Assembly (NCBI GenBank): GCA_964424115.1
Contig: CAYRHN010000017.1
Coordinates: 16,579-80,578 of the forward strand
Direction: 5' to 3'
Source of the DNA: an uncultured Anaerolineaceae bacterium
GTDB lineage: Bacteria > Chloroflexota > Anaerolineae > Anaerolineales > Anaerolineaceae
Length of the DNA: 64,000 nt
In this document: positions 11,703-61,390 of the stretch, piece after piece
Layout: each line of letters opens with the position of its first letter
How positions within the stretch are numbered: the first letter of the stretch is position 1
Notes under the pieces: generated by a model
What the model was told of the DNA's origin: nothing
Databases searched by the model: none
What the model saw: the letters and a program-made list of their open reading frames with translations, nothing else
Made by a program: the position numbers and the translations under genes

Positions 11703-11715
11703 AAGCTCCCTTCCC

Positions 11716-12897: not shown

Positions 12898-12900
12898 AGA

Positions 12901-36433: not shown

Positions 36434-39400
36434 TTAATTCGACCAATCAGGCCACCACTCAGAAGTAGCATTATTTGTAATCCTCGTTTGAGAAGTTCCA
36501 TCCTTCTTCATTTCGTAGACTTCCGAATTACCATCTCGATCCGAAGTGAAAACAATCCAATTTCCATCCGGCGACCACGATGGTGAGACATCATTGGATG
36601 TATTATTTGTGATTCTTTGTAACCCAGTTCCATCCACGTTAATCAAATAAATCTGAAATTTTCCATTAACTTTCATTGAGAAAGCAATCTGCTGTCCATT
36701 TGGCGACCAACCCATTGCCCCCCCAAATTCACCAACAAGCAATTGGTTACTTGTATTTGAATTCACATCATACAACATCAATGTTGTGCACGTAACGTAC
36801 GAAGCACAATAGATAATTTTGTCACCCAAAGGAGACCACTCGGAAAAATTGGCGTCGGATACAGAAGTTGGAAATTTATTGGATCCATTTTGATCCATGA
36901 TAACCAGGTCCCCACTGGTTCCGCCCAGATTAGCAATAAAAGCGATCTTTTGCCCATTAGGAGAGTAAGTTGGATTACTATCATCTCCTGAATAACCATT
37001 TGTTAAGTTTTCAATTTGAGTACCATCCGCTTTTACTTTGACTATATCCCAAACTGCGCATTCACCTGTCCCGCAAGATCGATACCCCGTTTTTGCCGAC
37101 AGAACTATAAATTGGTTGTCGGGAGACCAATGGGGATGAGCTTGCCCACTGTAAGTATAAAAAAGGCGCATCTGATTATTTCCATTAATATCCATTGTGT
37201 AAACGTTAGGATAGGAAACATAGGATATTTTTCCTTGTCCTCCTCCCGAGGGAGTGCTGGTTGGCGCTGGTGTAAAAGTCGGGGTTATCGTGGGTATCTG
37301 ATCAGTACTTCCCGAACCTCTCCCAATCAATGGCAAGAATATCGAAAATAAAGGGCGAGCGCCTATTCTTACACCGTTCACAATCGCGCCGCTGGAATTT
37401 CCTGCTCGATCAAACGCTGTCGCATAAAAGCTAGCTAAAGTTCCATCAGACAGCCCACTTCCATTCCAATTCAATCCCCACCCATTAGATCCATCTGCAT
37501 CAGTGCCAATCTCATGCCAATAATTTGCACCATCCTCATATCCAGCAAGGAATTTGACGCTAGTTACGCCCGAACCAGTATCTGATGCCGCGACAGCAAC
37601 AGACACAGTCTTGTCCTCATCAACTGATCCAGCAGCAGGCGATGTAAAAGATACAGAAGGAATTGAATTATCCAAGTTAACGGCAATCTCCCCGCCCGCA
37701 TTTGCTTTCGATCTCCCTGATTTATCGTACACATCTATTGCCAGTTTGATTTGCTGTCCGTTCAGCGCTGACCAATCCCAATTTTCAAATTGATAAGGAG
37801 GGGTATTATCGGTTCCCATATCCCGCCATTGACATCCTCCGACACAATGATAGACCTTAAACTTAACATAATTGACGCCACTCTTATCATCCCAAGCATC
37901 AGCCCAAATTGTTAGTGGGTTTTGATTTATGTAAGCATTATTGGCAGGGGCTGTAATTCTGCCATCCGGTTCTTCTAATTCCGGTTTGGGATATTCTTCT
38001 CCCCAAATATAGAGTTTTAGGTAGGCATTCCCTGTATTTTCGTAATATCTCACTTCAATCGTATGATACTTATTATCAAGCCACTTGTCTGTTTGTAAAC
38101 AACCACCACGATCCCACCATTCATCAATTTTCTTTTCCCCGTCAATTTCCAATACAACGCCGTCATCACTACATACACGGAAGAAATACTGACCACCATT
38201 AAAATATAGATTGCTGTAAATCTTAAAAGAGAATTGATCCGAGGGAAAACCTGAGTAAGGGGCTCCAGTGCCCCAATCTTTTTCAAACCCAATAAATGGG
38301 TAGGTCACATTGGTAACACCAGCAGGCCAATATTCATCGTGATTGACATAACCAGCCAACGATTTATTCATCCAGGCTTCTGCGTGCCATTGATTTACAG
38401 ATGGCAATCCTGCCCCTGAACAATCGTAATTTTTCGAGATATGCGGATTTGCATAATGCTCGCTGTATACCCATTTGTTACTTGAGTTATCCCATACCTC
38501 CATTCCAAGTTCAATATCCCCATTGGGAACACCAAAATTGCACATATCCCAATTTACACTGTAGGGTGAAGAACTATCCATTCCAATATCGTGCCACCCT
38601 CCGCTCCATTTAGCGCTGAAGCGCACTTCCCTAACCCCACTACCGCCAGAATTGTCTATGGCGTTTGCAGAGACATCGACCGTTCTGGATGTAATTGTTG
38701 CCCCGTTTGAAGGAGCAGTAAATGAACCCGATGGTGGAGTAGTATCCCCACCCACAGAACCAACTGTGAATGAGAAAGTTAGCAAGTCGCCGAATTTATT
38801 ACCAAACGAATCCGTCAATTGCCAATATGTATTATATGTGCCTGGTTGAGTGGGTAATTTCATCGAGATAAATATATTTGCTTCACTACCAGGGCTTACC
38901 CTTTGAGTCAGTTGATTGTCTCCATATACTTCAACGGTTGTGCCACTTGATTGGACGATTCCATATTCATACCCATATTCTGCCACACCATTATTCTTAA
39001 TTTTCCAACCTTTGGTTACCCACTGCCCTGGACCAAAGGTTAAATTTGATGAATAATTTAAGTGGGACAAGAATTGCGCACTATTGACCCCTGATGCAAT
39101 CGAGTTTTTATCGCCGGAATAATCCTCATCGCTTTCAGTTGGTGATTGAAAATCCTCCTCCTTCAATTTGGATGAATAGCCTGTTATCTCGATTCCGTAA
39201 ATAAATCCGCTTTTGATTTCCTCACCAGAATAGGTACGGTTTAATCCCTTTGGAGAGCCATCAGAATAATAATATAATTGTTTCCCAAATACATTAGGAT
39301 CAAATGCTAGAAACCTTGGCCCAAAGCTCCACACTTCCCCTTTTAATATAAGCCAATGCCCATCACGGGTTGGTGTGTATCTTCCATGCATCATGCCGTT

Positions 39401-39994
39401 GCTGGGGCGATCTTGATTATAAATCCAATAAGTATAAGCATCCACGTCACCGATTAATTTGTATGGTTTAATCTCGCCAACACATTTTCCTGGTTGCGGA
39501 CAGCTCGCTCCTCCAATAATATTCTGTTGGTAATAATCGTTCGAGGATGCGGAAATATTATTCCAATCCACTAAAACAATCACAATATTGTGCCGAACAG
39601 TGATCGCCCTCTCTAGTTCCAAGAAACTTGTTATTGCAGAATGTTGCACACCATATACATCAAGTGCATGTTCAAGTTCGGACGAATAAGTATTTCTATA
39701 CGCAGGAATACTCGCGGCAGCGCGAACTTCTTCTGGCCTAAGGGATGCATACTGACCAGACTTATATCTTACAGCCATCACCACGCTTGCTGGACCACAA
39801 TTATTAGCCTGACTCGTATCCCCATTCCCTTGTTTTTGGTAGATGGATGTAGGAACAGGAATATCATAACACCCCCCCGAAGAACTACACAAGAATTCAG
39901 TTTGTGCTTGGACTTGAAACGATAAATCCGCTAATAAAAGAATCCCAACAAAGAAGAAAATAACTGCGAGCAAGATGCCTTGGCTTTGTTTCAT
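36434..39994 (-). CDS. large secreted multidomain protein: peptidase C39-like N-domain, NBR1-FW-like domain, three Ig-like modules, a PA14 domain and a C-terminal TolB-type (PD40) beta-propeller
   Basis: It has a signal/TM segment (ILLAVIFFFVGILLLA) and the Cys-peptidase-like block NNCGPASVVMAVRY. The FW-like block is GQWVTKGWKIKNNG. PA14-like block: FSFKIYSNLYFNGGQYFFRVCSDDGVVLEIDG. Repeated Ig-like units are ..DNSGGSGVREVRF.., ..DDKSGVNYVKF.. and ..SDTGSGVTSVKF... PD40 repeats include SPDGNWIVFTSDRDGNSEVY. Confidence 0.8.
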   Translation of the reverse strand: MKQSQGILLAVIFFFVGILLLADLSFQVQAQTEFLCSSSGGCYDIPVPTSIYQKQGNGDTSQANNCGPASVVMAVRYKSGQYASLRPEEVRAAASIPAYRNTYSSELEHALDVYGVQHSAITSFLELERAITVRHNIVIVLVDWNNISASSNDYYQQNIIGGASCPQPGKCVGEIKPYKLIGDVDAYTYWIYNQDRPSNGMMHGRYTPTRDGHWLILKGEVWSFGPRFLAFDPNVFGKQLYYYSDGSPKGLNRTYSGEEIKSGFIYGIEITGYSSKLKEEDFQSPTESDEDYSGDKNSIASGVNSAQFLSHLNYSSNLTFGPGQWVTKGWKIKNNGVAEYGYEYGIVQSSGTTVEVYGDNQLTQRVSPGSEANIFISMKLPTQPGTYNTYWQLTDSFGNKFGDLLTFSFTVGSVGGDTTPPSGSFTAPSNGATITSRTVDVSANAIDNSGGSGVREVRFSAKWSGGWHDIGMDSSSPYSVNWDMCNFGVPNGDIELGMEVWDNSSNKWVYSEHYANPHISKNYDCSGAGLPSVNQWHAEAWMNKSLAGYVNHDEYWPAGVTNVTYPFIGFEKDWGTGAPYSGFPSDQFSFKIYSNLYFNGGQYFFRVCSDDGVVLEIDGEKKIDEWWDRGGCLQTDKWLDNKYHTIEVRYYENTGNAYLKLYIWGEEYPKPELEEPDGRITAPANNAYINQNPLTIWADAWDDKSGVNYVKFKVYHCVGGCQWRDMGTDNTPPYQFENWDWSALNGQQIKLAIDVYDKSGRSKANAGGEIAVNLDNSIPSVSFTSPAAGSVDEDKTVSVAVAASDTGSGVTSVKFLAGYEDGANYWHEIGTDADGSNGWGLNWNGSGLSDGTLASFYATAFDRAGNSSGAIVNGVRIGARPLFSIFLPLIGRGSGSTDQIPTITPTFTPAPTSTPSGGGQGKISYVSYPNVYTMDINGNNQMRLFYTYSGQAHPHWSPDNQFIVLSAKTGYRSCGTGECAVWDIVKVKADGTQIENLTNGYSGDDSNPTYSPNGQKIAFIANLGGTSGDLVIMDQNGSNKFPTSVSDANFSEWSPLGDKIIYCASYVTCTTLMLYDVNSNTSNQLLVGEFGGAMGWSPNGQQIAFSMKVNGKFQIYLINVDGTGLQRITNNTSNDVSPSWSPDGNWIVFTSDRDGNSEVYEMKKDGTSQTRITNNATSEWWPDWSN

Positions 39995-40445
39995 TATTAC
40001 GAGCTCCTTATTGCTTCATTATGACCTAGGGTATTACCTCTTTGATATTGTTGCGTGATTCCTCATTGCAATTTCGCCCAATGGTTTTCAACTGCGTGCA
40101 TATGGACATCACAAACCGGGTATTGATAACCATACAGGTGCCAAAATTTTCGCTATGATCAATCTTTCTTCATATCATGGTTGGGTTTCAATGTTGTTTT
40201 TCTACACAAGGGATTGTGTACTTGTACACTTCCCCCTGGTTGATTAAATTATAGCAGGTCTTTCTGAGCATGTCTATCCATCAAGCTACTATGAATTTAT
40301 TTCCTAAATATTCATCTTAGTTGCAATTATTAATAAACTCACCCCTTCTGGGCTCCACCTAAAAATCATCGAAATACCCCTCTTTTTTCTATTCCCCCCT
40401 AAAAAATGGTGGTAAAACGGATCTCCTATACAGAGTACTTCTCCT

Positions 40446-40836
40446 TAGTTACACAAAATAAATTCGGTTTTTCCAAGTTTTTTGGATTCTCCATATATGT
40501 ATCAAATCTTAAAAAATTCTCACGGTTTGTGGCACGCTTTTTCAAGATGAGAATTTTTCTCTTAATTAATTCGTGTATCAGTCGTTTTTAACCCCGAATA
40601 AGGGGGAAACGGGCAAAAACGGCGTTAAAACAAGGATTTTTTCTCAAGATAACGGATCAAAATCCCAAAATTCTCATTTTGGATTGGCATTCCTAGCTCC
40701 GCGTGATGGGAAATCCAATGTAACTACGGACACTTTTTCGCCTAGACCAGTGCTTTGTGGACAGATTTATCCCATTTGGATGCTGGAATGATACTGTAAC
40801 TGTGGAAAAAGGATACGAATCCATTGTAACTATGTA
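40446..40836. repeat. cluster of TGTAACTA-core short repeats in a 1-kb non-coding AT-rich region (candidate transposase- or protein-binding sites)
   Basis: The direct copies aatccaatgtaactacgga (40712-40730) and aatccattgtaactatgta (40818-40836) are present. A third direct core, tgtaactgtgg, lies at 40795. An inverted copy, tagttaca, lies at 40446-40453 (tgtaactaagga on the minus strand). Confidence 0.5.
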
Positions 40837-41053
40837 AAAGTTCCTTAAAGAATGTCCAAAATGCGTGGATTCGCAAAAAGATGCCCCAATTTCGCGTCAA
40901 ATTGTGTTCAAAATTTCGCTTGTCAGGCCAATCAGGCTGTTGTAGACTTATCATACTAAGTCGCGAGATGCCCCCCTCATCCCGCGGCTTGGTGTTTAAT
41001 TACACCCATATCGTGTGATCCACCACAATATAGTAACAATTATCTTAACTTCA

Positions 41054-42646
41054 CTATTGGCTATAATAACGCAAGTGTAATCCACAATAACCTATCTCAA
41101 TCTTTTCCTTTCCTTCATTGGGCTCAAAATAAATCTGAACACAATTTGTTCTATCCCCACCACCTAGCGTTAGATGTCTTAGCATTTGTTTTCTTTCGCC
41201 TTTATGAGAGAATCTCCTCTCGTTTCCATACAAGTTGATGGTCATCTCACTTTCAGTTGGTGCATATTTAAATCCCTTCGACGCAAAAAATTGCTCCCAC
41301 GCTCCAATAGACTCGCCTGTTTTTAATGATTTAAAATATTTTTCTCCAAGTTCGTATATGGCTTTTATTGCTTCAAAGATTTCCTTTGGACGAGCAAAGC
41401 CGGATCTCGCCGCAGACTCTCGCGCACTCTCCCAGATTATTAGATACTCTCCAAATAACTCATTAGCTTTGTTTATAGCATCCAAAACAGATGCAAATTC
41501 AGAAACAACTTCTCTAATTTCTTCTGATTGAACCGGCTCCATTTCTCCGTGATAAGCGCTCAGAAGCAGATAATTCTCTCTATGATTTGCGATTTCACTT
41601 TCAAGTTCTTGAATTCTCGCCGTTTTTGCTCTCAATTCAATTTGAAGCTGTTCATTTTCATCCAAGGCCTTCTCAAATTCTGGAAAGAATTCATCAATCG
41701 TAATTCTTTTTTCTTGGAGTTCTTGTCGAATACGTGCCACTTCCTCAAAACGTTTATTTTGTAAGTGTTGAAGTACCTTCTTGGTTAGTTTGCCTTCAGC
41801 GTATCTTAGAGCAGCAATGCTTGCAAGCAATCTAAACAAATGTGTTTCAATGTATAAACCTTCGTTTTGGTAACTCAGCATCTTATCTTGTAAGAATAAT
41901 TGATGGAAGAATGGATTTGCTGTTTTTGTAAATCCCGACCAATAAATTCTAATTGCTCCGTTATAACAAGATAATTGCTTTCCTAGAATCCCTGTCAATT
42001 CAAAACCAGCATCCTTATCAATCACAACTACTCTTGCAAATCCCAATAACTTCTTCTGCAACGCTACTGGATCCACAAATGTGAGGTTTGTCCAGGCGTC
42101 TCGAGATAGGAGAATAACTGGAAGGACTCTATTTGCATTCTCCAACACTTCGCTTACAAACAGACCAACTTCGCCCGCATAAATTTCTTGATATGAAACA
42201 GGTATCTTTTCGGTAGAAATTTTACTGCAATACCGAGTTAGTATTTCTTCAATTATTCTGGGTTTTCCAACGTTATAACCAATGATCGGTTTAACAACGA
42301 ATTGAGCAGATTCAATTCTTATTACAATCGATGCTTCAATTTTCTCGTTGTCTGCGCTAAACGAACAAGTAGTTTTCCAATATAAAGATTGATCTTGATC
42401 ATCTGGATGTGTCCACTCAAAGAAAACATACAGAAAATCATCCGATTCCTGTTTAGATATAACAATCATGTGCTGAGATAGGGGCGAGAATGATTTGTCT
42501 TGAAAACCCAAAACAAGATCGGTGTTCCAAGTCAATCTATATTTTTTCTGCACCCAATCGGTTATTAAATTTTGGATTTCGCCTAAACATATTCTCGTAT
42601 TGACTGAGGGATATATATCAAATTGGAGAGCATATACAGTTTTCAT
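41054..42646 (-). CDS. large protein of unknown function with a central coiled coil; fourth gene of the DGQHR/methyltransferase cluster
   Basis: The ATG at 42646 is preceded by AAGGTGGA. The central heptad-like region is RIRQELQEKRITIDEFFPEFEKALDENEQLQIELRAKTARIQELESEIANHRE. C-terminal block: RFSHKGERKQMLRHLTLGGGDRTNCVQIYFEPNEGKEKIEIGYCGLHL. Confidence 0.7.
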   Translation of the reverse strand: MKTVYALQFDIYPSVNTRICLGEIQNLITDWVQKKYRLTWNTDLVLGFQDKSFSPLSQHMIVISKQESDDFLYVFFEWTHPDDQDQSLYWKTTCSFSADNEKIEASIVIRIESAQFVVKPIIGYNVGKPRIIEEILTRYCSKISTEKIPVSYQEIYAGEVGLFVSEVLENANRVLPVILLSRDAWTNLTFVDPVALQKKLLGFARVVVIDKDAGFELTGILGKQLSCYNGAIRIYWSGFTKTANPFFHQLFLQDKMLSYQNEGLYIETHLFRLLASIAALRYAEGKLTKKVLQHLQNKRFEEVARIRQELQEKRITIDEFFPEFEKALDENEQLQIELRAKTARIQELESEIANHRENYLLLSAYHGEMEPVQSEEIREVVSEFASVLDAINKANELFGEYLIIWESARESAARSGFARPKEIFEAIKAIYELGEKYFKSLKTGESIGAWEQFFASKGFKYAPTESEMTINLYGNERRFSHKGERKQMLRHLTLGGGDRTNCVQIYFEPNEGKEKIEIGYCGLHLRYYSQ

Positions 42647-42900
42647 TTTCCACCTTGAGCACATAATTTAATCGGACTGTTAGAGCCATAATTTGTTGCG
42701 GGTATTAAGAGATATTACCACTCCAGCTATTTTCAAACTCATGAAGGAATTAATTCTAGTGTACAGGAATTATTTCTATCTGTCAAAAAATTGAGACGGA
42801 ATTCCTGTATTTTGATAAATTCCGGTTATAAAACAATCCCAATTAAAAATTTTTGAGATCAGATGAGAAAACCATGTATTACTTGATTTAATCAAATTCA

Positions 42901-44043
42901 TCATTTCCTTGGTTTCAGCAACAAAACCAATTCAACCGACTTGTTTCTAGCGTTTCGAATTTCATTGTTCCCACCCAATGTGCTAAACTGACCTTCAATC
43001 GTATTTCTATCTTCCACAAAAAACCATTCGGAAGCGATCGTTTTTATGTAATCCCCCGACAATCCATTGCTCGAATTACCAGATGGAAATGTAAAAATGA
43101 TGGTTGAACCTTGCCCTGCAATATTCTTAAGGAGTGATTCAAGAGCGGTCTTAGCTTGACCTACATTACTGAATTCTGATTGTGGCCTGTCCTCTAAGGG
43201 TGGATATCTTCCAACTCCAAAAACCGAGATCGATTTGTGGCATTGTGCCATTGTTTCAAGTACATGGTAAAAGCGGCTGTATTGAACAGAAGAATAAGGA
43301 GGATCGATAAAAACCAAGTCTTTTGAGGTCAATTGAGGAGTCACATTTTCCGCATTATCTGTTATTACCGAGCCCTTTACTTTAGCGAATTTTTGACACA
43401 AGAATTTCAAATTTGTTTTACAATGTTCCAAAGGGTCTTGTTGCCAAGACTCAAGTATGAATTTTCCAGCTCTTTCAGTCGGTTGAAAAGGCTGAGCTGT
43501 ATGTCCCGGTGATGCTACACATTCACTTGCTGCGGAGATACATGCTGCAAGGCATACAACCTTCTCTTCATACACATTCGGAAGATTATCCAATAAATAG
43601 TCGAATGTTAGCGCCTGTGTTGGGCTAAAGTAATGCCCTCCATATGCATTCCAAATTGGTCCAATATCCGATTTGTTCGCACATAGTTCTCTCGCTTCCT
43701 GAACATAAGAACCCACGTTTAAATTTTGGTTTGAGAGATGTCTAGCTTTCCTCCACAAGTAAGACCTGTTCCGCTCTTTTTGAGCCTTTTCCACCCAATT
43801 AATCGCAATTTTCTTCGCGTCAAGCAACTTCGTGCGCGATATAACGGCTTCCACAAGAATGGTTGAATATCTTTGTAAATCAACTGCAATTACAGGTCTT
43901 TCAATCCTTTCGGCGACAAACCACGAGACAAAACCACCCCCTGCAAAAAGATCTACAAATCTATCAAACAAAATAGATTGTTCTAATAGTAAATCCCCCA
44001 ATCCATTCTTAAGCATGGATCGCTTGGAACCCATATATTTCAT
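42901..44043 (-). CDS. N6-adenine DNA methyltransferase, Dam/D12 class, with a C-terminal extension
   Basis: KYMGSKRSML matches the Dam-type Y-x-G-S/N-K block. FAGGGFV is the SAM-binding FxGxG motif. FIDPPYSSVQYSRFYH carries the catalytic DPPY. Its ATG overlaps the stop of the upstream gene (ATGA at 44040-44043). Confidence 0.85.
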   Translation of the reverse strand: MKYMGSKRSMLKNGLGDLLLEQSILFDRFVDLFAGGGFVSWFVAERIERPVIAVDLQRYSTILVEAVISRTKLLDAKKIAINWVEKAQKERNRSYLWRKARHLSNQNLNVGSYVQEARELCANKSDIGPIWNAYGGHYFSPTQALTFDYLLDNLPNVYEEKVVCLAACISAASECVASPGHTAQPFQPTERAGKFILESWQQDPLEHCKTNLKFLCQKFAKVKGSVITDNAENVTPQLTSKDLVFIDPPYSSVQYSRFYHVLETMAQCHKSISVFGVGRYPPLEDRPQSEFSNVGQAKTALESLLKNIAGQGSTIIFTFPSGNSSNGLSGDYIKTIASEWFFVEDRNTIEGQFSTLGGNNEIRNARNKSVELVLLLKPRK

Positions 44044-45386
44044 GGGATCAATCCCCATAAACCGATTCTCTCACAACCTTCAAGAATTCTGAGTGAAGTA
44101 TTTTGGGTTTTAATTAGCCCAGAATAACTTGGTCGGCTCACTCTAGACATCCACGCATCCATCTTATTTATTGCATTATCAACTTCATCCCATAGAGATA
44201 CTATGTCGCCAGAATTTGTGCCAGGCTTATTTCTTTCATTCCAGAGCCCTTTTTCAATTCCCAGATTGTTCCACCAAAATTGAAGATCTGATGATGAATA
44301 TGAGGAATTGTTGATCAACTGAAAACAAACACCTGTAGCTATTCTCAATAGTAATGTTGCTCTTGAAATGACTTCTAAATGATGCTGGGGATCAGTAAAC
44401 GATCTTCTTTTTTCAGCTTCAGTTAGTATAAATGGATCCGGATAATTATTGTTTACAAAGAAATCTTGCCAACTATTTTTCATCAAATTAGTGAAGGAAA
44501 ATTTGTTTAGCATCCTTGAAATACGATCATCATACGAAAGTTGTACGCCATTAACATCTACCAATGGGATATCTAGATTAATCTTCTTTAAACTTTTCCT
44601 TATCAAGTATCGATCTAGTTGATTAAATCTGGTTGCGTGAAAAGGATTTAACGTACTCCAAAAATTGGAAATAAAACGACCACTATCTAACGCGGTAACA
44701 TTAGCTAGCTGAGTAATGTGGGAAGGTCTGTAACTAACAATATTCCTGGCATCTCTATCGGTGATAAGTATATTCAAGTCTAAACCACAAGTTGATAACC
44801 AGTAAGAGGCCAAGGATGATAAAATCCCGCTTGCTGAATATTCTGTTAACCAATCTTTTAATGGATAATGGTCGATTTTAATAATTTCACCGATAATATT
44901 TGCAGCTTGCGGAGTAGCAGCCCAATTTTCCAAAGCTAACCATGTAAATGGATGTGTACTAACACCTTGTAATTCTTGCGCATGCTGATTTTGATCTATT
45001 ACAACATGAGAATTATTAAAAACGCCTATCCCCCCCGAAGCAAGCAATGACATAGCTGCTCTTAATTCAGCATAATATGCTAAGTGCCGAGCTGTATTTG
45101 GATCACCTCGCATGATGCAATGCAATGCTCTCCCCAAGAAGCTCCATCCATCCATACAATGGGTGGGTATGGATGCTGCAATATAATTACAAAGGTCTAA
45201 ATCAATAATACAGCTATTTTTAAAATGGTCTTCAATCGTTTTGGTTGTGTTTACTAAATAAGCATTAGTATGCAACCATTCTCCATAAGAAAAATTGGAG
45301 TATAAAGATTGAAAAATATTAGCAATGGCCGAACTCGAAGCCATTGATAATTTGTTTTTCTGTTGGAGGGTTAATGTCGGCGGCAT
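44040..45386 (-). CDS. protein of unknown function, translationally coupled between the DGQHR and methyltransferase genes
   Basis: 448 aa with coherent AT-rich codon usage. Its start lies 3 nt after the DGQHR stop, and its stop overlaps the MTase ATG. No catalytic motif was recognised. Confidence 0.65.
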   Translation of the reverse strand: MPPTLTLQQKNKLSMASSSAIANIFQSLYSNFSYGEWLHTNAYLVNTTKTIEDHFKNSCIIDLDLCNYIAASIPTHCMDGWSFLGRALHCIMRGDPNTARHLAYYAELRAAMSLLASGGIGVFNNSHVVIDQNQHAQELQGVSTHPFTWLALENWAATPQAANIIGEIIKIDHYPLKDWLTEYSASGILSSLASYWLSTCGLDLNILITDRDARNIVSYRPSHITQLANVTALDSGRFISNFWSTLNPFHATRFNQLDRYLIRKSLKKINLDIPLVDVNGVQLSYDDRISRMLNKFSFTNLMKNSWQDFFVNNNYPDPFILTEAEKRRSFTDPQHHLEVISRATLLLRIATGVCFQLINNSSYSSSDLQFWWNNLGIEKGLWNERNKPGTNSGDIVSLWDEVDNAINKMDAWMSRVSRPSYSGLIKTQNTSLRILEGCERIGLWGLIP

Positions 45387-45389
45387 AAT

Positions 45390-46925
45390 CTACCTATATT
45401 TCAGCATTTTCATAGCCAATTTTGCCATTTTGCCAACATCCCCCGGTTCTTCAGTCAGGAGTTTCAATAGCTGTCGACGAAGTTCTTTGTAGCCCCCACT
45501 GCCTCGAAAAACTAGTTTGGATGTCCTTTCTTCAACTGATAAGAGCGGGTAGTTGGCCGTTCTCCAATCAAATTTTGATAGCCCTTTAACCAAAGCATCC
45601 ATGAAATTCGTTATCTTCTCTTCGTTCCTTAGGAATTCGAGAGCATTTGTAATATCAGTTAGAAGATCCCCTTTGATCTCTTGTTTATAGCACCACGACT
45701 CTAAATCCATCCCGTTTTGCGTTGCCTGTAAATAGAACAGGTCATTTACAATAAAAAGTATTCCACGAACACCCTGATCTGTATTTAGCAATGTATTAGG
45801 CCCATAGAACGCCAGATCTAAAATTTCTTCTGGTAACAATTGCAGTTGTTGGCCCTCGCTTCGTAAATCCCTCGCCCAACTATAATCTATGGATTCGATC
45901 TCCTTTGCAAATAGATTCCATGCATAAATCAAGAAAGCAGATTGCTGGGAACCGTCCCATGGAAGAACCGTATCATCATCTCCAATCTTAGCTCCATATA
46001 ATCCCCCAATACTACCTCGCCCTTCCCATGCCTTAACAAAAGTAGCAAGAAGCGAGTGAATCCAAGCAGCTTGTGAAACGGTTTTTTGCCCAGTTTCTCC
46101 CAGCATATTTATACGTTGGTACCAAGGACTTCCTGGAAACGACCAAAGTGCTTCAATTATCTCTTGAGCTCTTGTTTGACGATAAACAACTGGACCCTCA
46201 AATTTTTCAAGCCAGTCTTCAGTGCGAAGCAAAGGATAAAGATCAAATGCCATACTCGGATTGATTCGTTTAGGAGTGATATTAATCGTCCAAAATAAGT
46301 AAGCTTGCCAACTGATATCCAGACCATAGAATGCAACAACTGGTAGATCAAATCTGCCTTCAGGAAGATTTTCGTCAAAAGCAAATAACCTATGTTGCCC
46401 ATCAATAATCTCAATAGGATGGCGGTTAACAGGTTGCCAATCTACGCCTGTAAATGAATGGGGTAATTGTATTTGGGTTATTTCATTCTCATGGTGTTCA
46501 AGCGTAATCAAATCTTCAGGAGCAACTGTCAAACCGCGCCTGATTTGATCCGGTTTTAGGATATTTACAACAATAGCCGTTGGAAGCCAGCCGGGCTTTC
46601 GCAAATCATCGTATTTACCTGTGCCACGTTTTGACTTGCTTATTTCAGTCCAAGGATATCCAAACTGGATAAAGTCGCGAATTACTTTTGATCTCTCCGG
46701 GTCATGGCGCCTTTGAATACCTAAATCTAGCGAGCGCTGCAACCCATCTTTTGTAGTCCTTTGATAAATTCCGGATAATGCGCGTAAATCATTTGCATCT
46801 ATACTAAACACCAGGAAATAAGGCTCGGGTCTGGCTCGATGCGTCTTGGGATCGTACTCATATTTCTCCCATTCATCAAGCCACTGATGCACTTTTATCG
46901 CTGGGATTATCCTTTTAGTTTCCAT
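45390..46925 (-). CDS. DGQHR-domain protein (DndB-like, ParB/Srx-fold superfamily)
   Basis: The literal motif IEIIDGQHRLFAF is present. The upstream block GIQRRHDPERSKVIRDFI is as in DndB/ParB-like proteins. Confidence 0.8.
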   Translation of the reverse strand: METKRIIPAIKVHQWLDEWEKYEYDPKTHRARPEPYFLVFSIDANDLRALSGIYQRTTKDGLQRSLDLGIQRRHDPERSKVIRDFIQFGYPWTEISKSKRGTGKYDDLRKPGWLPTAIVVNILKPDQIRRGLTVAPEDLITLEHHENEITQIQLPHSFTGVDWQPVNRHPIEIIDGQHRLFAFDENLPEGRFDLPVVAFYGLDISWQAYLFWTINITPKRINPSMAFDLYPLLRTEDWLEKFEGPVVYRQTRAQEIIEALWSFPGSPWYQRINMLGETGQKTVSQAAWIHSLLATFVKAWEGRGSIGGLYGAKIGDDDTVLPWDGSQQSAFLIYAWNLFAKEIESIDYSWARDLRSEGQQLQLLPEEILDLAFYGPNTLLNTDQGVRGILFIVNDLFYLQATQNGMDLESWCYKQEIKGDLLTDITNALEFLRNEEKITNFMDALVKGLSKFDWRTANYPLLSVEERTSKLVFRGSGGYKELRRQLLKLLTEEPGDVGKMAKLAMKMLKYR

Positions 46926-47098
46926 GGTTCACTCCTACCGAAAATTATGGGGGGAACTGCTTGTTCCAAATTATATATTCATACTCGTTTTACGAAAACG
47001 AAAGTTATGTTTGATAAAGGCAAACCCCAATAAAAAGAGTATGATCTATTATATAATCATATTACCCAGCGGGTACACTTTAACAGACACAAAGAGAC

Positions 47099-48673
47099 AT
47101 GAATATGCCCAACTCCACCCATCTCGATCTACCGACCCTCGAACAATGGCTTTGGGACGCCGCCTGCCAGATCCACGGGCCGGTGGACGCGCCCAAGTAT
47201 AAGGATTACATCCTGCCTTTGATCTTCCTCAAGCGCCTCTCGGACGTCTTCGAGGATGAGGTGAATCGCCTGGCGGAGAGCTACGGCAGCCGCGAGGCAG
47301 CTGCATCCCTGGTGGAAGTGGACCATTCCCTAGTGCGCTTCTATTTGCCGCCCGCGGCGCGTTGGGACCGGATTGAGAAAGTAACCACCGGGCTGGGCCA
47401 GGCCATCACTGACGCGATGCGCGCCATCACCCGTGAGAACCCGCGCCTGTCAGGGGTGATTGATGTCACTGACTTTAACGCCACCACAGCCGGAATGCGC
47501 ATCATCGACGATGAGCATATCTATGCTCTGGTACAGGTACTGCGCCGCCATCGCCTGGGGCTGAAGGATGTGGAGCCGGATATTCTTGGCCGCGCCTATG
47601 AATACCTGCTGCGCAAATTTGCCGAGGGCCAGGGCCAATCTGCCGGGGAGTTCTATACTCCGCGCATGGTAGGCGTGTTGATGGCGCGCTTGCTCGATCC
47701 CCAACCCGGCATGACCAGTTACGACCCGGCCTGCGGTTCGTTTGGTTTGCAGATCAAGCTGCACCTGCGCCTGCTCGAAACCCACGGCGAGGAACTGGAA
47801 GGAGGCCATCGCCGCCTGCCGCCGAACGTGGCGCCCTTGCGCCTGTACGGGCAAGAGATCAACGCCACCACCTTTGCCATGGCGCGCATGAATGCCTTCA
47901 TCCACGATCTGGATACCCAGATTGCCCCCGACGACACCATGCGCCGCCCGGCTTTCTTGACCCCTTCCGGCGGGTTGCAGACCTTTGACCTGATCACCGC
48001 CAACCCGATGTGGAACCAGAAATTCGGCATGGATGTCTACGAAAACGACCCCTATGGGCGTTTTGCTTACGGAATTCCGCCCAGCGCGAGCGCGGATTGG
48101 GGCTGGGTGCAGCACATGGCGGCTTCGCTCTCCCCGCGCGGGCGCATGGCGGTAGTGCTGGATACCGGCGCGGTTTCGCGCGGCAGCGGCAACCAGGGCT
48201 CCAGCCGCGAGCGCGATATTCGCCAGAAGTTCGTTGAGGCCGATTTGGTAGAGGCAGTGATCCTGCTGCCAGAAAATTTATTCTACAATACTCCCTCGCA
48301 AGGAATCATTCTCATACTAAACAAAACTAAACCCCACCCTGGTGAAATTCTTCTGATAAACGCTAGTCACTCGTTTTTCAAGGGTCGACCTAAGAATGAA
48401 ATGAATGAAGAACATATAGCACAAATAACTGATGGTTATACTGCCTGGCAATTTAGAGAAGGGGCCTCAGCAGTCATCACATTGGGCGAGGCAGCACGCA
48501 AAGATTTTAACCTCAGCCCTAGCCGTTATGTGTCACAAAATGGGGATAATAAAGTCTTACCTTTGGATGAGGCTGTAGTACTATTACAAGAAACCGAAGA
48601 GGAAAGATCAGTAGTTCAAAATGAGTTAAATAAAATTCTTCAATCCCTTGGTTTTCAGAATAGGCAAGATTGA
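47099..48673 (+). CDS. hsdM: Type I restriction-modification system methyltransferase subunit HsdM
   Basis: The N-terminal HsdM_N block is LWDAACQIHGPVDAPKYKDYILPLIFLKRLSD. The SAM motif is YDPACGS and the catalytic motif is ANPMWNQKF (NPPF/W type). The gene overlaps hsdS. Confidence 0.9.
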   Translation: MNMPNSTHLDLPTLEQWLWDAACQIHGPVDAPKYKDYILPLIFLKRLSDVFEDEVNRLAESYGSREAAASLVEVDHSLVRFYLPPAARWDRIEKVTTGLGQAITDAMRAITRENPRLSGVIDVTDFNATTAGMRIIDDEHIYALVQVLRRHRLGLKDVEPDILGRAYEYLLRKFAEGQGQSAGEFYTPRMVGVLMARLLDPQPGMTSYDPACGSFGLQIKLHLRLLETHGEELEGGHRRLPPNVAPLRLYGQEINATTFAMARMNAFIHDLDTQIAPDDTMRRPAFLTPSGGLQTFDLITANPMWNQKFGMDVYENDPYGRFAYGIPPSASADWGWVQHMAASLSPRGRMAVVLDTGAVSRGSGNQGSSRERDIRQKFVEADLVEAVILLPENLFYNTPSQGIILILNKTKPHPGEILLINASHSFFKGRPKNEMNEEHIAQITDGYTAWQFREGASAVITLGEAARKDFNLSPSRYVSQNGDNKVLPLDEAVVLLQETEEERSVVQNELNKILQSLGFQNRQD

Positions 48674-48675
48674 TT

Positions 48676-49962
48676 ATGGTTGCACTGCAAAGTACCCAAT
48701 CTGCACTTAAGTTATCTAATCTTCCAAATAATTTCCCTTCTGGTTGGCGATGGCTAAAACTTGGCGATTTTGCTAATACAAAAAGTGGCGGTACTCCAAG
48801 AAGAGAAGTCCCAAATTTCTATGAGGGAATTATCCCTTGGATAAAATCAGGCGAACTTAAAGATACTACAATTACTCGATCCGAAGAACATATAAATCAA
48901 GAGGCGATAGATCATAGCAGCGCACAAATTTTCCCCAAGGGCACACTTGTAGTAGCTTTGTATGGAGCTACAGCTGGAAGAGTAGGGCTTTTGGAAATAG
49001 CCTCTGCAACAAATCAGGCTGTTTGTGCAGTATTTCCAGATAACAGCGCTATTCCTGAATATCTCTTTTATGCACTTATATACAGAAGGAACGATTTATT
49101 GAAAGAGCGATATGGGGGTGCTCAACCAAATATAAGTCAAACTGTATTACGTTCTTTTTATTTACCCATCCCCCCTCTGCCCGAACAACGCGCCATTGCC
49201 CATGTGCTGACCACCATTCGCCAGGCAATTGAGGCCAGTGAGCGTGTGATCGAGGCAACGCGTCAGCTTAAAAAGTCGACGATGAAGCATTTGTTCACCT
49301 ACGGCCCAGTGCCAGTGGACGAGGTGGATCGCGTACCGTTGAAAGAGACGGAGATCGGATTAGTGCCAGAGGGATGGAGCATTAGCCGTTTGGGTGATCT
49401 TATTGAAAAGCCAGAATATGGATATACAGCAAGCTCTTCATTAAAGGAAGTGGGGCCAAAATTTATTCGCATTACCGATATAAGTGATGAAGGAAGAGTA
49501 AATTGGAATTTAGTTCCGTATTGTGCTTGTTCAGAAAAAGAATTACCTAAATACATTGTAAAAAAGGGGGATATCTTGATCGCACGTATAGGAGCCACAA
49601 CAGGTAAAAGTTTTAGGGTTGAAGATTGTCCTCAAGCAATCTTTGCCTCTTATTTGATACGTTTACGTCCAAATATTGAATTGTTAGAAGATCGCTATTT
49701 GTACCAGTTTACGACAACAGACATTTATTGGAAGCAAATCAATTCAAGCAAAGGTGGGCGACTTAAAGGTGGTGTAAATATTCCCAACCTGCAAAACCTA
49801 TTAATCCCGTGTCCTAATAAAGAGGAACAAAACAATATTCAAGAAATTCTTGGTTCTATCGATGTCAAAATTATCGTTGAGACTAACCGCAAGAACGCTT
49901 TAGAATCACTATTCCAGAGCCTGCTGCATCACTTGATGACCGGAAAAGTGCGGGTGGGATAA
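48676..49962 (+). CDS. hsdS: Type I R-M specificity subunit HsdS (two target-recognition domains)
   Basis: The central conserved region is LPIPPLPEQRAIAHVLTTIRQAIEA and the C-terminal conserved region is LFQSLLHHLMTGKVRV. The ORF track starts at a TTG at 48670. Confidence 0.9.
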   Translation: MVALQSTQSALKLSNLPNNFPSGWRWLKLGDFANTKSGGTPRREVPNFYEGIIPWIKSGELKDTTITRSEEHINQEAIDHSSAQIFPKGTLVVALYGATAGRVGLLEIASATNQAVCAVFPDNSAIPEYLFYALIYRRNDLLKERYGGAQPNISQTVLRSFYLPIPPLPEQRAIAHVLTTIRQAIEASERVIEATRQLKKSTMKHLFTYGPVPVDEVDRVPLKETEIGLVPEGWSISRLGDLIEKPEYGYTASSSLKEVGPKFIRITDISDEGRVNWNLVPYCACSEKELPKYIVKKGDILIARIGATTGKSFRVEDCPQAIFASYLIRLRPNIELLEDRYLYQFTTTDIYWKQINSSKGGRLKGGVNIPNLQNLLIPCPNKEEQNNIQEILGSIDVKIIVETNRKNALESLFQSLLHHLMTGKVRVG

Positions 49963-49972
49963 GAGGGAAACC

Positions 49973-51292
49973 ATGCTCATTTTTGGCGCGGAGGAATTGC
50001 TGCTCAAGGAAAAGGTTACCCTCTACAATAACCTTGCCACTTTGGGGTCGCACTCCGGCCGTTTGTTGGCGGAATTGGAGATCTTCCCGGTTCCGCGCAT
50101 CACCTGGGATTTCGAAACATTTGAGCCAAGAGGTTGGGATGACGTATTTGATAATGGAATGATGCAAGCTTCTCTGCAAGGCAATCAATTCAAGATCGAA
50201 AAACCATACCCGGTCAATGATGGCTTTGTGACAATTCCAGGTCGTGAATCAAAGTGGTTAAGAGGGGTAGCAACCAAGGCAAGTATTGGCCCTGTGGATT
50301 TCGAAGCACATGAATTTCGCTTCCTGCTTCCAAACGTTTGCTTCCTCAGGCAAAATATCCCCGGCTTCGTTTCAGGGCTTCCGGGGCGTTCAATATCTGC
50401 CACAATTGATACTGAATGGCAAATTGAAATCAATATAAATGAAAACGCTTTCAAATGGCTGGAACCGAGTAACCGGAATATCGGCACTATGCTTTTAGCG
50501 ACCGGCCATTTAAAGCCTGTCCAACAAGATACACAATTCCTCTCGTTGCTTTCTTTCGAAAATACTTTAGAGCGCTTGTCTGACTTCTCACTCCTCTTAT
50601 CCTTTGCCAACGGAGGGTATTTAGGGCCTCTCTATGTAGAAGGTATATCCAACCAAGGGGATCTTAAAGCAGGAGCAATGATCCCTGTTTTTCGAGTTAC
50701 CCCCTTGGAGCAAATTGGATTGAGCTGGCTGGAATTTCAGAGCAATTTAACGAGCTATCTGGGCTGCTTTCCGGCTTTCGAACGCATGACACATTCCGAG
50801 CCGTGGGAAAATGATGAGTTCGACCTGATCCTTTCCTGGTATTTTCAAGCCATCCAACCTCAAAATGGTCAGATAGGCAAACCCTGGCCAGTGGTTGCCA
50901 ACGCCATCGGCACCGCCCTGGAGCGATCATTTAACACCATTATGGTCAGGGAATTAGGCTACCCCCAACCCAAAAACAAGAAAGGGTTGCCTCCCGAGAG
51001 TTTCCAACGCATTGAACAAATGCTGACCAGGATTGGGATCAAACGCGATGTGCCTCTAAATGACTATGACAACATACAAAATTTTGTAAATGTTCGTAAT
51101 GATGCCACCCACGGAGAAAACCGGGCAGATTTGTCGAGAGAGGAAATCTTTCGAACATTGGAGATGGGTATACAATGGTTAGAGGAAATATTATTGTGGC
51201 GTTTAGGGTATTCCGGAAAATACCGGAATCGGCTGATCAAGGTGGAAGATCAACCCAGATATGATTTAAGCACGAGAAAATCAGATTGGTAA
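49973..51292 (+). CDS. HEPN-domain protein (Rx4H motif), ApeA-like architecture, embedded in the Type I R-M operon
   Basis: The C-terminal FVNVRNDATHGEN carries R-N-D-A-T-H (Rx4-6H) and is flanked by predicted helices (LILSWYFQAIQ.., EIFRTLEMGIQWLEEILLW). The N-terminal roughly 300 aa are unknown and beta-rich. Confidence 0.55.
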   Translation: MLIFGAEELLLKEKVTLYNNLATLGSHSGRLLAELEIFPVPRITWDFETFEPRGWDDVFDNGMMQASLQGNQFKIEKPYPVNDGFVTIPGRESKWLRGVATKASIGPVDFEAHEFRFLLPNVCFLRQNIPGFVSGLPGRSISATIDTEWQIEININENAFKWLEPSNRNIGTMLLATGHLKPVQQDTQFLSLLSFENTLERLSDFSLLLSFANGGYLGPLYVEGISNQGDLKAGAMIPVFRVTPLEQIGLSWLEFQSNLTSYLGCFPAFERMTHSEPWENDEFDLILSWYFQAIQPQNGQIGKPWPVVANAIGTALERSFNTIMVRELGYPQPKNKKGLPPESFQRIEQMLTRIGIKRDVPLNDYDNIQNFVNVRNDATHGENRADLSREEIFRTLEMGIQWLEEILLWRLGYSGKYRNRLIKVEDQPRYDLSTRKSDW

Positions 51293-51307
51293 AACAAGGA
51301 GGAACCC

Positions 51308-52306
51308 ATGACCCTATGGATGGTTCGAGCAGGTCAACACGGGGAACGCGAAGATTTTGCACTTCAGAATAAAGTAGCCGTGATCGGCTGGGAAGAATTG
51401 GGAGATATTTCTGCTCTTCAAACGCGAAAAGAATTACGCCCCTTATTAGAAAAAGCATATCCCGATGAAAAACCTAACACTTTGCGCAATTGGGAAAGTC
51501 AGATCTGGCCTTTTATCCATGAAATTAAAATAGGCGATCTGATCGCCTTGCCATTAAAGAAACGGGCCGCAATTGCGATCGGCGAAGTCGATGGCGAAAA
51601 CCGCTATGAACCCAATAATCCCTTAGACGTCAGACACATTTTGCCGGTCAAAGGCTGGCAAGAATTTCCACGTACCAGTTTTGATACCGATTTATTGTAT
51701 TCATTAGGCGCTTTTATGACTGTGTGCCGGATTCAACGCAATCAGGCTGAAATCCGAGTCCGCGCCATGCTGGCAGGAAAAATCATCAGCGATGGTACAG
51801 AAGGCAAGGAAGAAAACATTCCCGACCTGGAGCAATTCGCCAGGGATCAAATTGTCAAATTTATTGAACGCAAATTTAAAGGCGATCGAATGGCTTATTT
51901 GGTTGAGGCAATTTTAATCGCCCAAGGTTACCAGACACGCGTTTCTCCCAAAGGTGCGGATGGCGGAGTAGATATTTTAGCTGGGCAGGGAAATCTGGGA
52001 TTTGGCATCCCACATCTGGCCGTTCAGGTCAAGTCTTCCGATGACCCTATTGACATCAAAATATTTAATGAATTGCAAGGCGCAATGAATAACTTTGGCG
52101 CAGAATATGGGCTGATTGTTACCTGGGGTGGATATAAAAGCACTGTAGAGAAAGAGGCTGCTCGCCATTTCTTTAAGATGCGCGTTTGGGATTCGGACAC
52201 CCTCGTGCGTATGATCCAGGAACATTACCATCAGCTTCCCGCTTCCACACAGGCTGAATTGCCGCTTAAACAAATTTGGATGCTAGTCCCCGAAGAAAAG
52301 GAATAG
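51308..52306 (+). CDS. mrr: Mrr-family restriction endonuclease (N-terminal DNA-binding domain plus Mrr_cat PD-(D/E)xK core)
   Basis: The N-terminus LWMVRAGQHGEREDFALQNKVAVIGWEELGD is typical of this family. The catalytic core is GADGGVDILAG..HLAVQVKS. Confidence 0.8.
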   Translation: MTLWMVRAGQHGEREDFALQNKVAVIGWEELGDISALQTRKELRPLLEKAYPDEKPNTLRNWESQIWPFIHEIKIGDLIALPLKKRAAIAIGEVDGENRYEPNNPLDVRHILPVKGWQEFPRTSFDTDLLYSLGAFMTVCRIQRNQAEIRVRAMLAGKIISDGTEGKEENIPDLEQFARDQIVKFIERKFKGDRMAYLVEAILIAQGYQTRVSPKGADGGVDILAGQGNLGFGIPHLAVQVKSSDDPIDIKIFNELQGAMNNFGAEYGLIVTWGGYKSTVEKEAARHFFKMRVWDSDTLVRMIQEHYHQLPASTQAELPLKQIWMLVPEEKE

Positions 52307-53017
52307 ATGGCCATGGAAATCATTGCCGGTTTGTTCTTGACCGCTCTTTACCAGCTTACCGAGAAAGTTTGGGAAAAAGGGCTGGATGCCGCTTGGGATC
52401 CATTACAAGAATCTCTCAAAAGCACCTTCTCGCGTTTGGCGGGAAAGGATCAGGAAACCAAACGTCGCGAGCAGTTTGCTGAAGCGTATAGAAAAGCCAT
52501 TCGCTACACCACCAAACGTGCTCAAAATCCTGAAGAGGCTGCCGAAATTTTAAGCGTTCTGGACAAAGGCATCCGTCCAACGGCTGTTGCCGTCCTGGCC
52601 GAAGAGGCTGCCAAAGTAGTGTTATATGCCGACTCCCCTGACATGGAACGCATGGCCCAAACCTGTCAGGAAAGTTTAAAATGGGATACATTCTGGCAGA
52701 ATTCCTTTGAACAAAAAACGCTTCCCGATACAAAGCGCATTGTAGAAATCTTATTGGCCTTTTTGTCCAACTTGCGGAAGTTTTTGATTGACCAATCCTC
52801 TTACAAAGAATTGACCCAACAAGAAATTCTTAAGACTTTGCAACGCATGGAAGAACGCGCACGTGAAGCCGTACCTTTTGACGACATTGAACGATATCTC
52901 GAACAGGTGATCCATCATTATGAAAGCTTGGATTTTGTTGGTATTCCAGAATTAAGTAACCGCCAATCGGTACGCATTGATGACATCTTCATCCATTTGC
53001 AAGCTTCATCGGATTAA
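52307..53017 (+). CDS. helical N-terminal module and pre-NACHT linker; same frame as the downstream NACHT ORF, from which one TAA separates it
   Basis: Its ATG directly abuts the mrr stop. The C-terminal YLEQVIHHYESLDFVGIPELSNRQSVRIDDIFIHLQA is the linker pattern that normally precedes the P-loop in bacterial NACHT proteins. Confidence 0.55.
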   Translation: MAMEIIAGLFLTALYQLTEKVWEKGLDAAWDPLQESLKSTFSRLAGKDQETKRREQFAEAYRKAIRYTTKRAQNPEEAAEILSVLDKGIRPTAVAVLAEEAAKVVLYADSPDMERMAQTCQESLKWDTFWQNSFEQKTLPDTKRIVEILLAFLSNLRKFLIDQSSYKELTQQEILKTLQRMEERAREAVPFDDIERYLEQVIHHYESLDFVGIPELSNRQSVRIDDIFIHLQASSD

Positions 53018-53041
53018 TTCCGGAACAGGAAAAAACCATTC

Positions 53042-58788: not shown

Positions 58789-59096
58789 CCGAAATTGACG
58801 AGAAAGACTCCCTGCCCCTGGCGCTAGAGCAAATCGTTCCAGCGGAATTGTTTAAAGCCGAAGTGCGCGCCATGGCTGCTAAAATGGGAGTTGAACCGCA
58901 ATCCATCACCCTGCGCGCGATGAAACGCAAATGGGCCAGCTGCTCCAGCAAAGGAAACCTGACCTTTGATCTGGATCTATTGCGCCAGCCTGCTAATTTT
59001 AGGCGCAAAGTAATCGTGCATGAACTGCTGCACTTGAAAGTTCCAAACCACGGGAAACTATTCAAGGCTATGGAAGCGATGTATTTGGCCGAGTGA
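58785..59096 (+). CDS. short YgjP/DUF45-type (M48-like) metallopeptidase-motif protein
   Basis: The HExxH motif is in VIVHELLHLKVPNHG. It overlaps the hsdR stop (ATGA). At 103 aa it appears to be only the C-terminal part of the usual roughly 230-aa family. Confidence 0.55.
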   Translation: MTEIDEKDSLPLALEQIVPAELFKAEVRAMAAKMGVEPQSITLRAMKRKWASCSSKGNLTFDLDLLRQPANFRRKVIVHELLHLKVPNHGKLFKAMEAMYLAE

Positions 59097-59108
59097 AGGA
59101 GAAAGATT

Positions 59109-60214: not shown

Positions 60215-60224
60215 AAGACCTCCT

Positions 60225-61286: not shown

Positions 61287-61390
61287 AGGGGAATTTTCTG
61301 CTCCTATTTATCCAAGATAAGTGGCTGGCAAAAACCCGAGGCGCGGGTGATTTTTTAGCGCTATTCACCGCAAGAAAACAGCCCCAACAT

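Follow-up and report, generated by a model that had tools for sequence, protein, structure and literature searches.

Four adjacent minus-strand genes, here called A, B, C and D, lie in a 64,000-nucleotide (nt) stretch of DNA from an uncultured Anaerolineaceae bacterium (contig CAYRHN010000017.1); this whole stretch is referred to as the window, and all positions are given within it. An earlier note on this DNA had described four minus-strand open reading frames (ORFs) with characteristic motifs and tight A-B-C spacing, all of which are present, and had proposed that together they form one modification-linked defence system. Comparative analysis shows instead that the locus consists of two independent units, namely a cassette of A, B and C, and gene D. 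The genes and the non-coding segments beside them are as follows.

45390-46925, minus strand: gene A, 511 amino acids (aa), DGQHR (ParB/Srx-fold) protein
44040-45386, minus strand: gene B, 448 aa, mostly alpha-helical protein
42901-44058, minus strand: gene C, 385 aa, predicted D12-class (alpha-group) N6-adenine DNA methyltransferase
42647-42900, minus strand: spacer between C and D, 254 nt, AT-rich
41054-42646, minus strand: gene D, 530 aa, HEC-07-family protein by profile match
46926-47098, no strand: divergent intergenic region between A and hsdM, 173 bp, presumed from its position only to hold the promoter of the A-B-C operon

The A-B-C cassette and its partners

Gene A, which has a GGAG-type ribosome-binding site (RBS) before its ATG, encodes IEIIDGQHRLFAF at residues 171-183, containing the DGQHR motif, with GIQRRHD...IRDFIQF further upstream. 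The protein scores above the cut-off of the DGQHR domain model TIGR03187 (59.2 bits against 58.85) but below those of Pfam DndB PF14072 (25.2 bits against 29.1, residues 64-226 aligned to positions 34-159 of the 338 in the profile), the DGQHR model associated with dnd (55 bits against 450 required) and DpdB NF041060 (16.3 bits against 300). Judged by these profiles, A is a DGQHR protein, as described earlier, and not an orthologue of DndB or DpdB. Across 50 homologues D175-G-Q-H-R179, Q71-R72 and F211...N215 are invariant. The AlphaFold2 (AF2) model has a predicted local distance difference test score (pLDDT) of 82.7 and a long, helical C-terminal half; its sole Foldseek match is a weak one to a ParB N-domain (5k5a, E 0.12), and Foldseek yielded no functional assignment for the C-terminal 285 aa. 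The protein is predicted to be a nucleoside triphosphate (NTP)-binding, DNA-associated component.

The ATG of gene B lies 3 nt beyond the stop codon of A (TAG). Its product has more than 1000 homologues, none of them named and all of about 450 aa, and a profile search of 1.84 billion cluster representatives returned 1227 clusters of uniform length, with no remote tail and no fusions among the best 150 matches. B itself has no match in Pfam, NCBIfam or PADLOC and no hits in a sequence-profile search of the PDB at E up to 10, while a Pfam scan of 56 homologues (E up to 1) found no recurring family and no DUF262, DUF1524 or HNH. The AF2 model is confident (pLDDT 91.6; predicted template modelling score, pTM, 0.92) and nearly all helical with a single beta hairpin at residues 126-140, and Foldseek found no match for it in the PDB or BFVD (best E 0.03, TM 0.11). 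The earlier note could place no motif in B and had suggested structural modelling; sequence and structure searches alike bear out that impression. Thirty-four residues are invariant and largely polar or aromatic, including H76, H101, E107, R109, T144, H145, D203, D210, R214, N215 and ten Trp, a pattern of conservation that looks enzyme-like or reader-like. In the model, the hairpin and the helix after it, which carries H127 and T144-H145, trace a beta-beta-alpha outline, which could suggest a His-Me-like site but is only a lead. The possibility that B is a paralogue of the C-terminal half of A was rejected (hhalign probability 0.1%).

Gene C carries the motifs KYMGSKR, FAGGG and DPPY, and about 200 aa are inserted between its motifs I and IV. 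It passes PF02086 (E 9.8e-14, 52.1 bits, cut-off 22) and matches PADLOC MTase_II at 5e-22, whereas its score against Dam TIGR00571 (28.7 bits, cut-off 114.85) is so far under the cut-off that C is not an orthodox Dam. Among 48 orthologues K7-Y-M-G-S-K12, D36/F38/G40 and D252-P-P-Y255 are conserved at 95% or more. With PF02086 passed and the catalytic motifs invariant, the earlier assignment to the D12/Dam class is upheld, and C is on profile evidence a D12-class (alpha-group) N6-adenine methyltransferase of predicted activity. An alternative ATG at 44043 overlaps the stop codon of B (TGA) as ATGA, and it is for this start that the overlap described before is correct.

Identity is about 33% for B, compared with about 50% in the case of A and about 46% in that of C. 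Two divergent cassettes on IMG/VR contigs (L096, 1383-5376; L097, 1459-5431) keep the order A'-B'-C', their A and C being 38% and 37% identical and their B alignable only over residues 69-220. Because A and C still align in these cassettes and B only partly, B is, by alignment, the fastest-evolving member of the cassette.

For the synteny survey, one genome per GTDB species was scanned, 160 species with a relative of B were found, and the best 80 loci were examined, with the window proteins A-D searched in them by tblastn. These 80 loci cover at least 15 phyla plus the archaeon Methanoregula, and include Chloroflexota, Cyanobacteria, Planctomycetota, Acidobacteriota, Actinomycetota, Campylobacterota, Verrucomicrobiota, Nitrospinota and Patescibacteria as well as Alpha-, Gamma- and Deltaproteobacteria. 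A lies immediately upstream of B in all 79 informative loci, an adjacency that far exceeds chance, and a recognised DNA-modification gene adjoins A-B in at least 72 of 78 informative loci and is of at least five unrelated kinds. The loci divide by what stands next to A-B as follows.

Long D12 (C-type) methylase: 49 loci, 48 with it immediately downstream of B and 1 with it disrupted by an insertion sequence
Short Dam-like D12 methylase: 13 loci
Other D12 methylase, upstream or convergent: 3 loci
MT-A70 methylase: 2 loci
N6_N4 methylase: 1 locus
HSDR_N_2/N6_Mtase protein: 1 locus
DndC-DndD-DndE, with PbeA-/PbeC-like genes upstream: 3 loci
Probable dnd-type genes (cysteine desulfurase; SMC-like ATPases): 2 loci
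No recognisable modification gene: 4 loci
Contig end: 2 loci

All-against-all clustering of the flanking ORFs revealed no other conserved flanking gene, and the 107 nearest flanking proteins matched 148 Pfam families; most of these are housekeeping families, and methylases, ResIII/SNF2 helicases and integrases make up a small number. Three homologues looked up individually, one of them the window's own, each gave a DGQHR gene, a B gene and a D12 methylase in that order, and the flanks in the two unrelated genomes among them were housekeeping genes. Given these counts and the lack of any other conserved flanking gene, the conserved unit is A-B plus an exchangeable DNA-modification gene, with D excluded. 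The earlier proposal that A-B-C is a functional unit is thus borne out by an order conserved across phyla. Furthermore, A-B is almost always linked to a modification enzyme, and that enzyme is freely exchanged among at least five unrelated families; together these facts show that A-B acts on modified DNA or through it.

The three loci L013, L018 and L023 (cyanobacterial or uncultured, about 6400-14000) have A-B directly before dndC-dndD-dndE, and PbeA-like and PbeC-like genes stand upstream of the pair, so that A plus B takes the place of canonical dndB; in L013 an additional AAA ATPase separates B from dndC. This placement ties the pair to DNA modification generally and not to methylation alone. 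The earlier note had found no dnd gene, which is true of the window genes scanned and does not extend to these three relatives: no Dnd, Ssp or Dpd proteins were found among the island genes scanned (PADLOC, Pfam), nor any DpdA/TGT, DpdC or Dpd helicase genes, the segments 58785-59429 and 60225-63980 being compared with Pfam only and the host part at 1-36 kb being sampled only. Two further loci depart from the usual layout. B and C form one 826-aa ORF in L079 (7995-10475), either a true fusion or an assembly frameshift, and in L049 (1639-12115, on a complete chromosome) an insertion of about 4.8 kb splits A and a DDE transposase interrupts C, with B intact.

The A-B-C cassette is a self-contained, horizontally mobile three-gene module. 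Its cultured carriers include Zymomonas mobilis CP4, Rhizobium tumorigenes 932, Sphingomonas colocasiae, Herbiconiux ginsengi and Bradyrhizobium spp. B occurs on five plasmid records and in 7 of 2.9 million viral contigs (IMG/VR), and in none of 50,697 phage genomes. The Z. mobilis plasmid pZZM405 (NC_013788.1; L086, 5322-12613) carries a DGQHR gene, a hypothetical gene and a Dam-family methylase gene, then DUF4433 and macro-domain (DarT/DarG-like) genes; partition and toxin-antitoxin genes adjoin the cassette. On R. tumorigenes pRt932 the cassette lies beside Mu-transposase and TniB genes. The record bears the label ZM4 pZZM405 but comes from strain CP4 (PMC5930841), and for this reason the ZM4 methylome and restriction-deletion study (PMC8432527) was rejected as a test of the cassette, its data being inapplicable for or against any model. 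In Z. mobilis CP3, an RGATCY motif with N6-methyladenine (m6A) that is not assigned to any enzyme offers a lead only (PMC8088579).

Gene D

Gene D most likely encodes 530 aa from a start at 42646, because the RBS AAGGTGGA stands 4 nt before that ATG; a longer reading of 536 aa from 42664 is also open. The 236-bp spacer between C and D given previously is right for the start at 42664, while that at 42646 leaves 254 nt. In its predicted layout an N-terminal region is followed by a central coiled coil, and the protein ends in a RelE/BECR-like domain of the RNase type, with a His, H524 of the 530-aa protein, six residues from the C-terminus (...GYCGLHLRYYSQ). It matches four PADLOC HEC-07 profiles. 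The best match, to PDLC04161 (E 1.8e-35), extends over positions 180-549 of the 553 in the profile and takes in residues 171-532 when counted on the 536-aa reading, or 165-526 on the 530-aa protein; another is to PDLC04159 (1.4e-13, residues 28-532 on profile 31-527 of 531). The last 150 residues also match the C-terminal domain of Menshen NsnC (8e-14), and NsnC's C-terminal domains are BECR/RelE-type RNases (PMC12065111). The C-terminal block, which the earlier note had left unplaced, is RelE/BECR-like by the HEC-07 and NsnC profiles.

HEC-07 is a single-gene 'Hma-embedded candidate' of Payne et al. with AdoMetDC-like, thioredoxin-like and RelE-like RNase domains, and belongs with candidates for which a reduction of plaquing in E. 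coli has been reported (bioRxiv 10.1101/2024.01.29.577857). D is of similar length and shares the C-terminal RelE-like block and the His near the C-terminus, and one D homologue is nested in an Hma-like locus, the habit behind the HEC-07 name. In contrast, D itself is not Hma-embedded and lies beside the cassette in a Tn7-like defence island, and its N-terminal third, compared by profile, is covered only by the weaker model (1.4e-13). The nested homologue (P0392 of L088, 3383-12672, 33% identity) stands between an HTH-SNF2/ResIII-NOV_C helicase gene and a DUF1156 methylase gene; a Fic gene follows the methylase and a ThsB_TIR-like gene lies upstream, so that the whole resembles an Hma-like defence locus. 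Other D homologues are found near resolvases and STAND NTPases, without A-B-C, and a D homologue in L090 has a Tricorn/PD40 protein nearby, as in the window, possibly by coincidence.

The earlier note had counted D as a fourth member or effector and had suggested a survey of the co-occurrence of A to D. That survey found A-B-C syntenic and D homologues in none of the 80 A-B loci, including the closest, whose A is 80% identical; D is absent also from the plasmid copies of the cassette, and a 503-aa gene after the pRt932 cassette was rejected as its equivalent for want of similarity. A single four-gene system with the coiled-coil D as effector or co-effector would fit the co-directional, adjacent arrangement of A-D in the window, and the resemblance of the D C-terminal domain to the NsnC effector domain could be quoted in its favour, since Menshen has a ParB-like sensor. 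The synteny data nevertheless contradict it, and the nearly full-length HEC-07 match, the homologues in unrelated loci, the 254-nt spacer and the separate RBS make such a system very improbable. These same observations place D outside the cassette, where it is best explained as an independent single-gene HEC-07-type RNase defence candidate. As such, D would act in an abortive-infection type of defence, its C-terminal RelE/BECR-like domain cleaving RNA once activated. A sigma-70-like site in the spacer (TTGACA, 17 nt, TACACT at 42786-42758) is not above shuffle expectation, and is thus only compatible with independent transcription of D.

Possible roles of A and B

Full-text literature searches on DGQHR proteins, DndB-like proteins and pairs of DndB or ParB-like proteins with methyltransferases, which took in two recent comparative-genomics papers on Dnd and BREX, turned up no account of the cassette, and PADLOC v2 (2023) has no model for A or B. 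The earlier impression that the arrangement fits no named system is in this respect correct for A-B-C, which on sequence grounds appears to be an undescribed ParB-NTPase system linked to DNA modification. With DndI, SspE, GmrSD and BrxU it shares a ParB/Srx-fold NTPase with a DGxxR-type motif that is genetically coupled to DNA modification. It differs from them in that A and B have no DUF262, DUF1524 or HNH Pfam match, that the putative effector is a separate protein without known fold, and that the predicted mark is N6-methyladenine, with several other marks in relatives. The resemblance to DndB, which regulates phosphorothioation, lies in the DGQHR motif and the position directly upstream of a modification gene, and in three relatives the pair precedes dndC-D-E. 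A exceeds the DndB-family profiles (338-381 positions) in length by about 130-150 aa, however, is always accompanied by B, a protein that canonical dnd clusters do not have, and is partnered mostly with methyltransferases; dndC, dndD and dndE were found only in L013, L018 and L023 and not among the scanned island genes. DpdB, an ATPase needed for DpdA to insert preQ0 (7-deazaguanine), is likewise a DGQHR/ParB-like ATPase working alongside a DNA-modifying enzyme, but A misses the NF041060 cut-off and has no TGT-like neighbour among the scanned island genes.

Two further systems invite comparison. Menshen (NsnA-NsnB-NsnC) also has three genes of which the first is ParB-like, and the C-terminus of D resembles the BECR RNase of NsnC (PMC12065111), but A, B and C have no NsnA or NsnB match, no ABC ATPase is present, Menshen lacks a methyltransferase, and the NsnC-like domain here is in D, outside the cassette. 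Type II restriction-modification (R-M) systems with a Dam-like methylase are similar as compact, mobile operons of a D12-class methyltransferase and tightly linked partners. They differ in that A and B have no recognisable restriction endonuclease fold, and that the methyltransferase here has a pair of partners, including a ParB-type NTPase, and this pair also combines with the non-methylase Dnd modification.

The favoured reading, at a little less than an even chance, is that A-B-C is a restriction-modification-like system in which A would be the reader and B the effector against DNA without the mark of C. In such a system C would methylate adenine in host DNA, and A would bind DNA and separate marked from unmarked DNA through NTP binding and hydrolysis. 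B would replace the nuclease domain of DndI, SspE and GmrSD as a separately encoded effector or reader and act on unmarked invading DNA, so that A-B would amount to a split DndI/SspE-like pair. Because the modification gene is exchangeable, A-B would moreover serve as a general-purpose reader/effector, co-evolving with the mark that is written in each case. Mark reading by A, an effector role for B and a restriction or defence outcome are all matters that we infer, purely so for the role of B, since no effector motif was detected in A or B. One extension of this idea is put forward more tentatively, and we regard it as unlikely: that A-B is a new restriction module, a ParB-type NTP switch with a new-fold effector/reader, which would sense in a generic way whether DNA is marked and be re-pluggable onto almost any mark (m6A from four methylase families, possibly N4-methylcytosine, m4C, or phosphorothioate), with B a new nuclease or modification-reader fold.

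Modular partner swapping is typical of restriction partners. This swapping, together with the abutting or overlapping start and stop codons and the lack of another conserved flanking gene, argues for the restriction-modification-like arrangement, as do the invariant NTP-binding motifs of A, the catalytic motifs of C, the enzyme-like conservation and fast divergence of B, the scarcity in phages, the carriage by mobile elements and the place in the defence island of this window. There is also a precedent in DndI, a ParB-like DUF262 protein fused to HNH, which nicks DNA without phosphorothioate and is toxic without the mark, and which is freed from marked DNA through stimulated ATP hydrolysis (PMC11662687). 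Several observations weigh on the other side. No nuclease, helicase or other effector motif was found in A or B by Pfam, NCBIfam, PADLOC, PDB or Foldseek searches, and the best-studied modification-linked DGQHR relatives, DndB and DpdB, are not restriction components. Where A-B is linked to dnd genes, it takes up the position of DndB and has Pbe-like restriction genes already at its side, and most loci lie outside obvious defence islands. The 4 loci without a recognisable modification gene beside A-B would be unexpected were A-B lethal alone, although the gene in these could be novel or elsewhere.

The main rival reading makes A and B accessory factors of modification with no part in restriction, A together with an adaptor B loading on DNA and targeting, stimulating or limiting the neighbouring enzyme; the cassette would then be an epigenetic or protective marking device without killing activity of its own. 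A shares its DGQHR domain class with DndB and DpdB, the three dnd-linked loci have A-B where dndB normally sits and possess separate Pbe-like nuclease/ATPase genes, and no effector domain was detected in A or B. The single B-C ORF of L079 would agree with a docking of B onto the methylase, proteins that fuse a ParB fold to a methyltransferase are common, above all in phages (bioRxiv 10.1101/2025.10.10.680097), and in the few loci without a neighbouring modification gene A-B is not visibly decayed. Yet the short Dam-like, MT-A70 and N6_N4 partners belong to families that normally work alone, and some 960 aa of strictly conserved two-protein machinery is much for a 270-aa methylase. It is also easier to imagine a reader of DNA status than one helper that adapts to five unrelated enzyme folds and DndCDE, the many invariant polar residues of B would be superfluous in an adaptor, and the cassette is nearly absent from phages, where self-protective hyper-modification modules are common. 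An accessory role is a serious possibility but one we regard as unlikely.

Alternatively, A-B-C could be mainly a selfish addiction module, with the methylase as antidote and A-B as poison, that stabilises its carrier elements and has little or no anti-phage role. The compact, self-contained form in very varied genomic contexts would suit this, as would the partition and toxin-antitoxin genes beside the plasmid copy in Z. mobilis, the Tn7-like/Mu-type genes in the window and on pRt932, and L049, where A and C are both disrupted and B is intact. The four loci seemingly without a modification gene speak against it, however, and it overlaps with the restriction-modification-like reading, since classical R-M systems behave both ways; taken as the main function, addiction seems improbable.

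If A-B were a restriction or reader module, modification-based immunity would gain both a protein fold and an architecture that are new to it, with one reader/effector pair re-used with chemically different marks (m6A, phosphorothioate), and this would bear on the sensing of DNA state by the ParB-fold NTPases DndB, DpdB, DndI and SspE. If A-B were instead a helper, ordinary Dam-like methylases would be under a ParB-type NTP switch, providing a new handle on bacterial epigenetic regulation. Under either reading, about 1200 'hypothetical' sequence clusters would gain a context. The result for D carries lesser weight, as one more member of the HEC-07 family in a defence island.

The surrounding island

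The GC profile falls from about 0.60 upstream to 0.36-0.46 in a block that runs from about 36.1 kb to the end of the window. Within it, A-D are flanked by the gene for a 1186-aa Big_7/PA14/PD40 protein on one side and by an hsdM-hsdS...hsdR operon on the other, and both the profile and the flanks agree with the earlier account of an AT-rich island between a secreted-protein gene and a Type I R-M operon. TniQ, TniB and Mu-type transposase genes are located at 60.2-64.0 kb, and because of these a Tn7-like element probably carries the low-GC island (at least 28 kb, about 36100-64000), with every defence gene in it, as cargo. The transposition module spans 59435-63980 on the minus strand and comprises a helix-turn-helix (HTH) protein, TniQ, a TniB/TnsC-like protein and a Mu-transposase_C (TnsB-like) protein that reaches the window end. 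A search for Tn7 end repeats around 36-41 kb gave nothing convincing, and there is no tRNA gene in the 64-kb window.

In the Type I R-M operon (47099-58788, plus strand), four nested genes separate hsdS from hsdR, a textbook 'embedded defence genes' layout. The first (49973-51292) has weak HEPN RiboL-PSP / YopA_C matches and the second (51308-52306) encodes Mrr_cat, the PADLOC candidate PDC-S02 (E 2.6e-131); the remaining two (52307-53017 and 53042-55873) are an NNH2-like gene plus a NACHT/HEAT STAND NTPase gene, all on the plus strand. After hsdR comes a YgjP-like peptidase fragment (58785-59096). In the intergenic region at 46926-47098 the promoter scan called no consensus promoter, and the promoter and terminator scans gave counts not above those of shuffled sequence.

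On the other side of A-D, the 1186-aa secreted-type protein (36434-39994, minus strand) lies inside the low-GC island and carries Big_7, N_BRCA1_IG, PA14 and PD40/Tricorn-like beta-propeller repeats. The roughly 1 kb between its gene and D (39995-41053) contains no convincing ORF, and around 36-41 kb there was no Rfam match to a non-coding RNA. The region's best sigma-70-like site (TAGACA, 17 nt, TATAAT with TG) lies in this interval, on the minus strand at 40276-40248.

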